A stretch of DNA of 50,266 nucleotides from Dehalococcoidia bacterium (GCA_049642385.1 JBAROU010000056.1:1-50266); one strand, 5' to 3'. Positions 45,181-47,230 are shown, counted from the first letter of the stretch. Numbers and translations are program-made. Notes: generated from the sequence alone by a model not told the origin.

Positions 45181-45408
45181 ATGCCTGACCCGCAACAGAC
45201 CGAGGAGTATCGACAGGCGTACGACGCCTGGCACGAGCAGATCGAGGCGCTCCATCGCGTCCTCCTAGAAGGCGACCGCCTCGATCCTCCGAAGCTAAAA
45301 GGCCTGCTCAACCGCGAAGCGCGCGCCAAAGATCGCTACGACATCGCGCGCCTGGCCCTCCTTGGCCTCGATAGCGCCCAGGACGACCCGTTCGCGAGTA
45401 AGCCGTAG
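45181..45408 (+). CDS. hypothetical helical protein, 75 aa
   Basis: Only the 3' third of track ORF 44584..45408 is used. ATG at 45181 and GC3-rich codons. A hairpin GCAGGGCT-tc-AGCCCTGC (45411-45428) follows the stop. Confidence 0.4.
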   Translation: MPDPQQTEEYRQAYDAWHEQIEALHRVLLEGDRLDPPKLKGLLNREARAKDRYDIARLALLGLDSAQDDPFASKP

Positions 45409-45455
45409 TTGCAGGGCTTCAGCCCTGCGGGAACAACCGATACGCTGACACCACA

Positions 45456-46289
45456 ATGGTCACCACCACCGAACCCATACCCAATGAAGCGACGAGCCCC
45501 GCGCCGCTGAGCGTTCCCCAGCGCGTCGCCGCCTCGACGCTGCGCTACGGGAAGTCGTTCGGCATCGGCTCCGCGTTCGCCGTCGGCTGGACGCCCTGCA
45601 TCGGCCCGATCCTCGGCGCCGTCCTCACGCTCGCAGCCTCCTCCGCGACCGTCGTGCATGGCACGTTCCTGCTCGCCGCGTGGTCGCTTGGGCTGGGCGT
45701 GCCGTTCCTACTCGCCGGCCTCATGCTCGGCCAGGCGATGACTGGCATGCGCAAGATCCGGCCGCTGATGCCTGTACTCGAAGTCGCGGGCGGGCTGCTC
45801 GTGATCGTCATCGGCTCGCTGATCTTCCTCGACCGCTTCACGATCTTCAACCAGTACTTCACGGGCGGCGTCAGCACCGTCACCAACGCCGAGTCGGGCG
45901 TCGACGGCATCAGCGTGACGGGCTCCTTCGGCTTCGTCGCGGCGTTCGTTGCCGGCGTGATCGCGTTCATGTCGCCCTGCACGCTGCCGATGGTGCCGGC
46001 GTACCTGATGCACCTGGCCGGCGTCTCGTCCGACGCCGAGGCGACCCAGCAGCGCGGCGTGACGTTTCGGCACGCGCTCGCGTTCGTGGCGGGCTTCTCG
46101 ATCATCTTCGTCGCGCTGGGCGCGTCGGCGGGCGCGCTCGGCTTTGTCATCCAGGACCACCTCGAGACCATCGAGAAGGTGGCGGGCGTCGTGCTCATCG
46201 TCCTCGGCCTGAACCTGATCGGCATCCTGCGCATCCCCTGGCTCTACCGCACCTACCAGCTCGAGTTCCCCGGCACGGCCGGCGGCTAA
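45456..46289 (+). CDS. ccdA: CcdA/DsbD-core thiol:disulfide transporter with its two 3-TM halves in swapped (circularly permuted) order
   Basis: FAVGWTPCIGPILGAVL (normally the TM4 motif) is at residues ~40-58. FMSPCTLPMVPAYL (normally the TM1 motif) is at ~172-185. Six TM helices in total. Confidence 0.8.
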   Translation: MVTTTEPIPNEATSPAPLSVPQRVAASTLRYGKSFGIGSAFAVGWTPCIGPILGAVLTLAASSATVVHGTFLLAAWSLGLGVPFLLAGLMLGQAMTGMRKIRPLMPVLEVAGGLLVIVIGSLIFLDRFTIFNQYFTGGVSTVTNAESGVDGISVTGSFGFVAAFVAGVIAFMSPCTLPMVPAYLMHLAGVSSDAEATQQRGVTFRHALAFVAGFSIIFVALGASAGALGFVIQDHLETIEKVAGVVLIVLGLNLIGILRIPWLYRTYQLEFPGTAGG

Positions 46290-46351
46290 GTGAACAGCGC
46301 CGGGTTCCAGGCGATCCTCAAGTCGGAGCGGCCAACCTGATCGACCTGCTA
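46233..46351. repeat. copy 1 of an imperfect ~120-nt direct repeat (ccdA 3' end plus degraded dinB-like 5' end)
   Basis: Exact 37-mer tggctctaccgcacctaccagctcgagttccccggca at 46239-46275 and again at 46667-46703. The flanks are recognisably homologous (..gcgatc.tcaagtcggagcg..). Confidence 0.8.
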
Positions 46352-46386: not shown

Positions 46387-46650
46387 ATGGATCTTGACAA
46401 CAAGGCGCTCGTGCTCGACCTGGTTGAATGGATCGCGAGCAGACCGCGCACGTACGCAGAGGTGATGGAAGCCTGGCGGACGTCGTGCCCCCGCCTCCCG
46501 ATCTGGGAGGACACGGTCGATCTCGGACTCGTAGTCTGCCAGCGTCGCGTGAATTCCGATCTGATCGTTGAGGTTACACCCGCCGGGCGAGCCTTTCTAA
46601 CGGCGGAGCGGCCACAATATGGGGATGCCCTGTTGAACCCGGTTCCGTAA
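46387..46650 (+). CDS. hypothetical protein, 87 aa
   Basis: MDLDNKALVLDLVEWIASRPRTYAEVMEAWRTSCPRLPIWEDTVDLGLV... GAGGGG 9 nt upstream. It sits exactly between the two repeat copies. I recognise no family with confidence. Confidence 0.55.
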   Translation: MDLDNKALVLDLVEWIASRPRTYAEVMEAWRTSCPRLPIWEDTVDLGLVVCQRRVNSDLIVEVTPAGRAFLTAERPQYGDALLNPVP

Positions 46651-46660
46651 AGACCGCGAT

Positions 46661-46783
46661 GGCCCTTGGCTCTACCGCACCTACCAGCTCGAGTTCCCCG
46701 GCATGGCGAGCGGCTGAGTGGTGAAGGACGCTGAGCTCCTTGCGATCATCAAGTCGGAGCGCGCCAAGCTCAACGATCTGCTC
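46661..46783. repeat. copy 2 of the ~120-nt direct repeat (orphan ccdA 3' fragment plus intact dinB-like start)
   Basis: Encodes PWLYRTYQLEFPGMASG* out of any gene context, then GTGGTG, the start of the DinB-like gene. Confidence 0.8.
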
Positions 46784-47230
46784 GACGCCGTTGACCTTCG
46801 ACGAATGGAGGAACCCGGCGTATCGGGCTTCTATTCGATCAAGGACATCATCGCCCACCTCACGGCATACGAGCGGGCGTTGGTGAATTGGCTCAAGGAA
46901 GCCAAGGCTGGCCGCGTCTACGTCGATAGCGTGCTCGACCAGGCGGACCTCGACGCAAGAAACGCCGTCGTGCATGAGGCGAACAAGCGTCGGAGCGCTG
47001 CGGAAGTCGTCAGGATCTTCCACGAGACGTTTGATCAGCTCGAAGCGTGCGTCATCCTCCTGACCGACGACGAGCTCACCGATGCCGAGCTGACGGCCTG
47101 GTTCGTCCTGCCCCGCTGGCAACAGAAGCAAGATCTTTGGAAGTGCATCGCGAACGACTCGTACGAGCATCACCAGCAGCACATCCCGGACATAGAGCGC
47201 TGGCTAACAGAGAACGGCTCGGCGGGCTGA
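46718..47230 (+). CDS. DinB/ClbS-like four-helix-bundle family protein
   Basis: IKDIIAHLTAYE...W and a C-terminal SYEHHQQH histidine cluster. Confidence 0.7.
   Translation: MVKDAELLAIIKSERAKLNDLLDAVDLRRMEEPGVSGFYSIKDIIAHLTAYERALVNWLKEAKAGRVYVDSVLDQADLDARNAVVHEANKRRSAAEVVRIFHETFDQLEACVILLTDDELTDAELTAWFVLPRWQQKQDLWKCIANDSYEHHQQHIPDIERWLTENGSAG

Follow-up and report, generated by a model that had tools for sequence, protein, structure and literature searches.

A conserved CcdA/DsbD-family membrane protein with circularly permuted helix order in Dehalococcoidia

Introduction

As a minimal membrane module, CcdA exports reducing power from the cytoplasm. The CcdA proteins of Thermus thermophilus (Protein Data Bank (PDB) entry 5VKV), Archaeoglobus, Rhodobacter and Bacillus have six transmembrane (TM) helices that form two homologous repeats, each of which contains one cysteine in the motif SPCxLP or GWTPCxGP. 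In canonical CcdA this Cys pair is described as being carried by an elevator-like movement of TM1 and TM4 within a scaffold, although debate on how transport works continues (PMC7329351). DsbD and ScsB, electron hubs of Proteobacteria built from alpha, beta and gamma domains, belong to the same membrane-core superfamily and differ from CcdA in having eight TM helices and periplasmic alpha and gamma domains at the N- and C-termini. They use a two-Cys relay that runs from thioredoxin in the cytoplasm to thioredoxin-fold acceptors in the periplasm, and the alpha and gamma domains flank the core of DsbD (PMC3322552). The published three-class scheme of DsbD, CcdA and ScsB has no permuted form (PMC3322552).

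Here we describe a ccdA gene in a stretch of 50,266 nucleotides from a Dehalococcoidia bacterium (GCA_049642385.1, JBAROU010000056.1:1-50266), which we call the window. A first-pass annotation had read this gene as a CcdA whose two halves are in reversed order, 4-5-6-1-2-3, and was not aware of a described protein of this kind. In agreement with this, we found no description of a permuted CcdA or DsbD in the literature searched (CcdA/DsbD with permutation, Dehalococcoidia, and superfamily classification). To our knowledge, natural circular permutations of polytopic membrane proteins have rarely been reported. Our results demonstrate that the permuted CcdA is real and conserved, and it is probably functional. 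It is a variant of CcdA and not a new kind of system.

Results

The two halves of CcdA are encoded in reversed order

The gene is an intact open reading frame (ORF) of 277 codons plus a stop codon that encodes a CcdA/DsbD-core protein. Codon position 3 is 94% G+C in a sequence that is 65.7% G+C overall, which is typical of real genes. A database protein from a Dehalococcoidia metagenome-assembled genome (MAG) is 100% identical (P0001) and is annotated as 'cytochrome c biogenesis protein CcdA'. The protein contains only two Cys residues, and both motifs quoted in the first-pass annotation are present in the order given there: Cys48 is within FAVGWTPCIGPILGAVL and forms part of GWTPCIGP, and Cys175 is within FVAGVIAFMSPCTLPMVPAYLMHLAGVS and forms part of SPCTLP. 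The parts of the gene are as follows, with the evidence for each in parentheses.

45456..46289, + strand: permuted ccdA, in the order TM4-5-6, linker, TM1-2-3 (ORF; DsbD_TM 55.9 bits; swapped 5VKV alignment)
45456..45527, + strand: N-terminal tail, residues 1-24, predicted to be cytoplasmic; made up of a variable extension and the distal side of what was the TM3-TM4 loop (charge; low confidence in the AlphaFold2 model)
45528..45866, + strand: first half, residues 25-137, homologue of canonical TM4-TM5-TM6 (136.6 versus 5.2 bits; 5VKV residues 103-211)
45597..45599, + strand: codon of Cys48 in GWTPCIGP, equivalent to the catalytic Cys of canonical TM4 (motif invariant, n=77)
45867..45926, + strand: new linker, residues 138-157, GVSTVTNAESGVDGISVTGS, former C-terminus joined to former N-terminus, predicted to be outside (charge; fixed length; conservation)
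45927..46259, + strand: second half, residues 158-268, homologue of canonical TM1-TM2-TM3 (138.7 versus 14.9 bits; 5VKV residues 3-97)
45978..45980, + strand: codon of Cys175 in SPCTLP, equivalent to the catalytic Cys of canonical TM1 (motif invariant, n=77)
46260..46289, + strand: C-terminal tail, LEFPGTAGG plus stop, predicted to be cytoplasmic; proximal side of the former TM3-TM4 loop (RIPWLYRTYQ.(E/D)FP conserved)

The order of the halves was examined with four independent tests: Pfam, phmmer against 5VKV, profiles of each half, and the loop of canonical relatives. The Pfam check proposed in the first-pass annotation gave partial hits in swapped model order. DsbD_TM (PF02683), the profile of the DsbD/CcdA superfamily (TCDB 5.A.1), scored 55.9 bits, which is above its gathering threshold (cut-off 27.1, E 4.8e-15), and aligned residues 161-258 to profile positions 6-101. 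DsbD_2 scored 28.2 bits (cut-off 24.9) and aligned residues 30-119, which lie earlier in the protein, to profile positions 117-196. The CcdA of Thermus, the sole solved structure found by sequence, aligned in the same way with phmmer (E 1.8e-30, approximately 58 bits for each three-helix repeat), so that query residues 158-262 correspond to CcdA residues 3-97 and query residues 24-136 correspond to CcdA residues 103-211.

Separate TM1-3 and TM4-6 profiles were made from 88 proteins with canonical order. The N-terminal half scored 136.6 bits on the TM4-6 profile and 5.2 bits on the TM1-3 profile, and the C-terminal half scored 138.7 bits on the TM1-3 profile and 14.9 bits on the TM4-6 profile. 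Because each half is strong on its own profile and reaches only 5-15 bits on the other, the assignment is unambiguous despite the internal repeat, of which the weak cross-scores are a trace. The protein has the two homologous three-helix repeats of the superfamily and one Pro-flanked Cys per repeat (SPCxLP and (G/W)TPCxGP, here SPCTLP and WTPCIGP), and the reversed order of the halves is confirmed at a level well above chance. It departs from the canonical CcdA architecture, which is colinear (1-2-3-4-5-6) with extracytoplasmic termini, in having the order 4-5-6-1-2-3 and termini predicted to be cytoplasmic. No NCBIfam model scored above its curated cut-off; the best partial matches were to TsoB (42.5 bits, cut-off 805) and DsbD (PRK00293, 26.6 bits, cut-off 330).

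The fourth test used canonical-order proteins that are 48-51% identical to the query (P0121, P0123 and P0124). These contain one continuous TM3-TM4 loop that reads '...RIPWLYRTY...LRY(A/G)(N/K)S..GAAFAVGWTPC'. Because both termini of the query are found in this single loop, they are the two sides of the TM3-TM4 loop, as the first-pass annotation had proposed from their resemblance. The TM3-TM4 loop of P0121, which is encoded on a JGI contig of 1375 bp, is unusually long (approximately 50 aa) and of low complexity, and it resembles the C-tail plus the N-tail of the permuted proteins. P0121 could have arisen by back-permutation, from two permuted genes in tandem, and need not be ancestral in form.

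The permuted order is conserved and under purifying selection

We call the architecture 456-123 (4-5-6-1-2-3) type A and the order 2-3-4-5-6-1 type B. Homologues with the order of the query, which were to be sought according to the first-pass annotation, proved to be abundant. GWTPCxGP precedes SPCxLP in all of the best 120 hits (64-100% identity, 87-100% coverage, about 250-330 aa), which were drawn from assemblies of four independent sources (NCBI, JGI, ENA and Logan). Among the 530 proteins fetched, 155 show the 456-123 architecture. An alignment of 77 family members showed that W45, T46, P47, C48, I49, G50 and P51 of the first motif and S173, P174, C175, L177 and P178 of the second are invariant, as are many helix residues. 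The ratio of nonsynonymous to synonymous substitutions (dN/dS) is 0.15 at a dS of 0.64 in comparison with the closest relative, locus L021 (83% amino-acid identity), and 0.29-0.34 in comparison with four more distant loci. Thus, the permuted ccdA evolves under purifying selection.

The region that follows TM6 and includes the linker (residues 127-157) is 30-34 aa long in 77/77 sequences and is acidic, with a mean of 0.7 Lys plus Arg (K+R) and 3.4 Asp plus Glu residues. The linker contains a VT.AE motif, in which E146 never varies and V142, T143 and A145 show conservation of at least 90% (n=77). The linker sequence resembles the C-tail plus the N-tail of canonical relatives. Across the family the N-tail region (query residues 1-36) ranges from 12 to 85 aa with a mean of 3.2 K+R. 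The C-tail has a mean of 2.7 K+R (n=77) and keeps the RIPWLYRTYQ.(E/D)FP motif. The MAG B76T1B5 (Chloroflexota) has two type-A copies on different contigs (L015 3773-4639 and L018 1-573), which could be paralogues or a binning mixture.

Predicted topology places both termini in the cytoplasm

In the 77 permuted family members the N-tail, TM5-6 loop, TM1-2 loop and C-tail together have a mean of 10.8 K+R, versus 2.4 in the TM4-5 loop, linker and TM2-3 loop, and the segments predicted to be inside exceed those predicted to be outside in 77/77. Canonical proteins, used as a control, showed the N-out/C-out pattern, with 10.6 versus 3.2 K+R and more K+R inside than outside in 88/88. The most basic canonical loop is TM3-4 (4.6 K+R), which is the counterpart of the permuted N-tail plus C-tail (3.2 + 2.7). 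The canonical N-out topology follows from the positions of the domains in DsbD (PMC3322552) and from the charge bias of these 88 proteins. In the permuted proteins the charge bias alternates along the chain in the way expected of two repeats that have opposite membrane orientations. The bias in the two sets therefore leads to a predicted topology for the permuted CcdA in which both termini are inside, the linker is outside and the orientation of every helix is kept. The suggestion in the first-pass annotation that the termini lie on the opposite side of the membrane agrees with the positive-inside rule in each of the 77 sequences.

The AlphaFold2 model of the protein is a helical bundle with a mean predicted local distance difference test score (pLDDT) of 76.7 and a predicted template modelling score of 0.70. 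Its helices are consistent with six TM helices and break at SPCTLP. Only the linker and tails are modelled with low confidence, and pLDDT falls below 50 at residues 137-151. A Foldseek search of the PDB with this model returned CcdA 5VKV first.

Permuted forms are found in several parts of the CcdA tree

Neighbour-joining (NJ) trees were made from cores re-ordered to the canonical order (approximately 243 columns, 200 bootstraps). The clade of the query has 97-99% bootstrap support and its sister is the canonical-order protein P0121 (85-90%). A second type-A clade is formed around P0129 (also P0412-P0432) and consists of at least 22 clusters, some on contigs of 1-6 Mb and one named Dehalococcoidia. 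This clade has 98% support, joins the query clade in 0/200 replicates and has canonical nearest neighbours at a distance of 0.66, versus 0.95 to the query clade.

Type B proteins (2-3-4-5-6, linker, TM1) have the SPC helix at the extreme C-terminus and comprise P0122, P0142, P0157, P0266 and the P0175 group of eight clusters (P0175, P0293-P0299). The P0175 group nests among canonical CcdAs of alphaproteobacterial type (Rhodovulum, Paracoccaceae, Hyphomicrobiales) with approximately 60% identity, and its junction is, nearly verbatim, a C-tail of that type (WLLETFP.L.TIG) fused to the N-tail. A TusA gene adjoins P0175 (L023 131-919). Like the query, the P0129 clade and type B have the formerly periplasmic termini joined and a cytoplasmic loop beside a Cys-bearing helix opened, which gives N-in/C-in termini. 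Type B differs from the query in that the TM1-TM2 loop, not the TM3-TM4 loop, is opened.

Monophyly of all type A, of all type B or of all permuted proteins received 0% NJ support in each case. We rejected a single origin of all permuted forms on the basis of these bootstraps, which come from a weak method, and of the lineage-specific junction sequences. Repeated tandem duplication, fusion and trimming is the most economical reading, and back-permutation within the family is also possible. We suggest only tentatively that the permutation is recurrent and independent, with at least two origins of 4-5-6-1-2-3 (Dehalococcoidia/Chloroflexota) and at least two of 2-3-4-5-6-1 (one of alphaproteobacterial type), and that permuted forms are selected and not merely tolerated. 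Two canonical-type proteins, P0206 and P0230, have a tandemly duplicated N-terminal TM1 segment (MTEGWVEYLTGPWGF...SPCVLPLVPAYLAHLTG repeated). These could be assembly artefacts or snapshots of partial tandem duplications able to seed permutation.

Redox genes adjoin the permuted gene in relatives

Genes in the window were called by G+C content at codon position 3 and the neighbours of ccdA were scanned with Pfam. Their order is a CoA-ligase-like gene, an alpha/beta-hydrolase gene, orf75, permuted ccdA, orf87, a DUF1706/DinB_2 gene and uvrA. No cytochrome c maturation genes (ResA/CcsX, ResB/ResC or CcsBA) were called beside the permuted gene in the window or in the fetched loci (5-20 kb per genome), and no second CcdA-family gene was found in the window or in loci L001-L021. 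A search of contigs for relatives returned close relatives and two canonical Terriglobales genes only.

In the P0129-type clade the permuted gene is often translationally coupled, through an 8-bp overlap, to a gene for a membrane-anchored WCGPC Redoxin (L022 8001-9411; L026 and L027 5001-6396). The same arrangement is seen in the canonical ccdA-tlpA pairs of Terriglobales (L019 and L020). Redoxin, Thioredoxin and small cytoplasmic-type Thioredoxin_3 genes flank the type-A gene in L001/L002/L010, L013 and L016. The coupling to Redoxins in relatives gives indirect support for normal reductant export, and the permuted CcdA would transfer reductant from thioredoxin to the extracytoplasmic side. 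A small (53-100 aa) anchorless CPxC protein of Thioredoxin_3 type adjoins the type-A ccdA in several loci (L001 10885-11151, L013 1735-2058, L016 5048-5353, L022 7596-7757). This recurrent protein is a candidate for a dedicated cytoplasmic electron donor.

Directly upstream of ccdA in the window is a small gene that is found at the same place in L021, L009, L014, L015 and L005.

45181..45408, + strand: orf75, small conserved gene directly upstream of ccdA, possible operon partner (homologues upstream in relatives)

The orf75 product is 75 aa long, charged, helical and free of Cys, and it had no match in Pfam. It may be an operon partner of the permuted ccdA. The stop codon of orf75 is closely followed, 28 nt ahead of the start of ccdA, by a perfect 7-bp GC-rich hairpin (GCAGGGC TTCA GCCCTGC, 45411-45428), which has no T-run and was not flagged in the terminator scan. 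The scan for promoters and terminators around ccdA gave nothing above shuffled background.

A local repeat covers the 3' end of the gene

The 3' end of ccdA is within a locally duplicated segment, as had been noticed in the first-pass annotation. The two copies form a direct repeat with identities of 91% and 78%.

46235..46330, + strand: repeat copy R1, native ccdA 3' end and, after it, a relic of 16 codons from the beginning of the DUF1706 gene (VNSAGFQAILKSERPT*) (repeat comparison; translation)
46663..46761, + strand: repeat copy R2, in which a relic of 17 codons from the 3' end of ccdA (PWLYRTYQLEFPGMASG*) precedes the beginning of the intact DUF1706/DinB_2 gene (identity to R1 of 91% and 78%; Pfam)

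The repeat spans only the last 18 codons of ccdA, and their translation, PWLYRTYQLEFPG, is the family consensus LRIPWLYRTYQ(L/F)(E/D)FP. The 16-codon relic in R1 follows directly after the ccdA stop codon. R1 and R2 flank orf87 (46387-46650), and the intact DUF1706/DinB_2 gene is at 46718-47230. In the closest relative, L021, the permuted ccdA is followed by an orf87 homologue, with neither relic (that of R1 is 43 bp long) nor a DUF1706 gene. The region from R1 through orf87 to R2 has the appearance of a segment that was imported or that was inserted by homologous (Campbell-type) recombination, and not of an assembly collapse.

Discussion

We consider it likely, with a probability of about 0.85, that this gene encodes a functional, naturally circularly permuted thiol-disulfide electron transporter of the CcdA/DsbD-beta family. 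The chain would start in what is ordinarily the cytoplasmic TM3-TM4 loop and continue through TM4 (with Cys48), TM5 and TM6. The new acidic linker of approximately 20 residues, made of the former C-tail and N-tail, would then cross the outer face to TM1 (with Cys175), TM2 and TM3, and the chain would end in the cytoplasm. Because the orientations of the helices are all canonical, the chain should adopt the six-helix inverted-repeat fold of canonical CcdA, but with its termini N-in/C-in instead of N-out/C-out. The Cys48-Cys175 pair in the membrane core would be reduced by a cytoplasmic thioredoxin-type donor, as in canonical CcdA, and would then be exposed to the outer face to reduce a membrane-anchored WCxxC thioredoxin-fold protein. 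The gene may have arisen by in-frame tandem duplication of a canonical Chloroflexota ccdA to give 1-2-3-4-5-6-1-2-3-4-5-6, followed by loss of the first three and last three helices. The first-pass annotation had suggested such a duplication with trimming; the junction sequences support it, and the route itself is one that we infer.

Several observations weigh against this reading. The window contains no thioredoxin-fold genes in its 50 kb and none of the genes for cytochrome c maturation near ccdA. If a canonical ccdA is present in the same genome, the permuted copy might be specialised or differ in role. The trees are NJ trees on approximately 243 columns at high divergence, which is a weak method. 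The Foldseek alignment of the model to 5VKV is weak (TM-scores of 0.41/0.48, E 0.49, 16% identity). The modelling proposed in the first-pass annotation gave a helical bundle consistent with six TM helices and 5VKV as the top fold match, but a weak sequential match. Since the aligner is sequential, a weak match is expected and cannot validate the permutation.

The first-pass annotation named a rearranged or inactivated gene as its main alternative, and this would be a pseudogene produced by local duplication and insertion at the 3' end. The last 18 codons are indeed in a direct repeat and a foreign-looking segment is downstream, but the repeat touches the C-terminal tail alone, that tail is the family consensus, and the second copy of the 3' end is the 17-codon relic downstream. 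The reading frame is intact with a dN/dS of 0.15, many assemblies together contributed 155 fetched proteins with the 4-5-6-1-2-3 order, which does not depend on the repeat in any of them, and L021 has the permuted gene without any repeat. A pseudogene is thus effectively refuted. There is even less reason to believe in an assembly or binning artefact, that is, a chimeric join of two partial ccdA copies, although the source is a MAG contig with a diverged repeat nearby. The same architecture occurs in independent NCBI, JGI, ENA and Logan assemblies on contigs that include some of 0.26 to 6 Mb, and conserved residues occur in the linker, whose length is fixed. R1 and R2 are 91% and 78% identical and are therefore not a collapsed duplicate.

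The same protein could have had another history, in which two separate three-helix half-genes were fused in B-A order. Inverted-repeat membrane proteins such as DUF606 are believed to have begun as separate antiparallel halves and to have been fused later (PMC3962082), and some half-length hits exist (P0128, P0138). We rejected these and two others (P0125, P0130) as half-genes since they are pieces of full type-A genes that were cut short by a contig edge or a frameshift. Each half of the query is 40-50% identical to the matching half of full-length CcdAs from the same phylum, the query clade has a full-length canonical protein as its sister, and the linker reads as a canonical C-tail plus N-tail, nearly verbatim in the P0175 type-B group. 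Fusion of half-genes is thus quite unlikely. A change of function, in substrate, redox partner or direction of flow, is slightly less improbable but still doubtful. The protein would then no longer be an exporter of the CcdA type and might co-exist with a canonical ccdA. Such a change would fit with the window copy being beside neither a redox partner nor a cytochrome c maturation gene, with the invariant Glu and VT.AE motif in the linker, which suggest a selected new feature, with the conserved small orf75 upstream, with the MAG that has two type-A copies, and with the lack of NCBIfam matches above any cut-off. By contrast, neither the two Cys motifs of PCxxP type nor the helices around them vary, and several genomes show translational coupling of a type-A gene to the gene for a TlpA/ResA-like Redoxin, just as for the canonical ccdA in L019 and L020.

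The permuted CcdA shares with canonical CcdA six TM helices with the same inferred orientations and, in its relatives, a ccdA gene followed by a gene for a TlpA/ResA-like Redoxin. It differs in its 4-5-6-1-2-3 connectivity, in termini that are predicted to be cytoplasmic rather than periplasmic, and in the cut TM3-TM4 cytoplasmic tether together with the conserved acidic extracytoplasmic linker that ties TM6 to TM1. The window copy also shows no link to cytochrome c maturation genes. The match to DsbD is weak (26.6 bits in NCBIfam), and the points at which DsbD carries its terminal domains are fused together in the permuted protein, which could therefore not carry such domains at its termini. 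Like DUF606 and the EmrE/SMR paradigm of inverted repeats, the permuted CcdA has oppositely oriented homologous halves that can in principle be encoded in either order (PMC3962082). Those families, in which the halves are found as separate or as fused genes, differ in that their variation comes from duplication and fusion of half-genes, whereas the permuted CcdA consists of the re-ordered, fully diverged halves of a fused protein in which the old tails have become the linker.

Permuted proteins are currently labelled 'cytochrome c biogenesis protein CcdA' or hypothetical. Profile pipelines give partial domain hits only, and the permuted architecture is therefore invisible in current annotation. 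Because the TM3-TM4 tether is severed and TM6 is joined to TM1 at their outer ends, the family is a natural experiment on which connections are dispensable to the mechanism, and this suggests that permuted CcdAs are ready-made constructs for structural work. The apparent recurrence of permutation with two break-points, each time with N-in/C-in termini, bears on the constraints that topology and insertion place on the evolution of membrane proteins. If the permutation is recurrent and selected, one possible reason is that N-in termini simplify membrane insertion. Alternatively, partner docking or the elevator movement may be altered by the acidic outer linker (Glu146, VT.AE) together with a Cys-bearing helix whose cytoplasmic end has been released. 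The permuted proteins would then offer natural tests of the elevator mechanism proposed for CcdA, and they would be a rare example of a polytopic membrane protein in which permutation has recurred.

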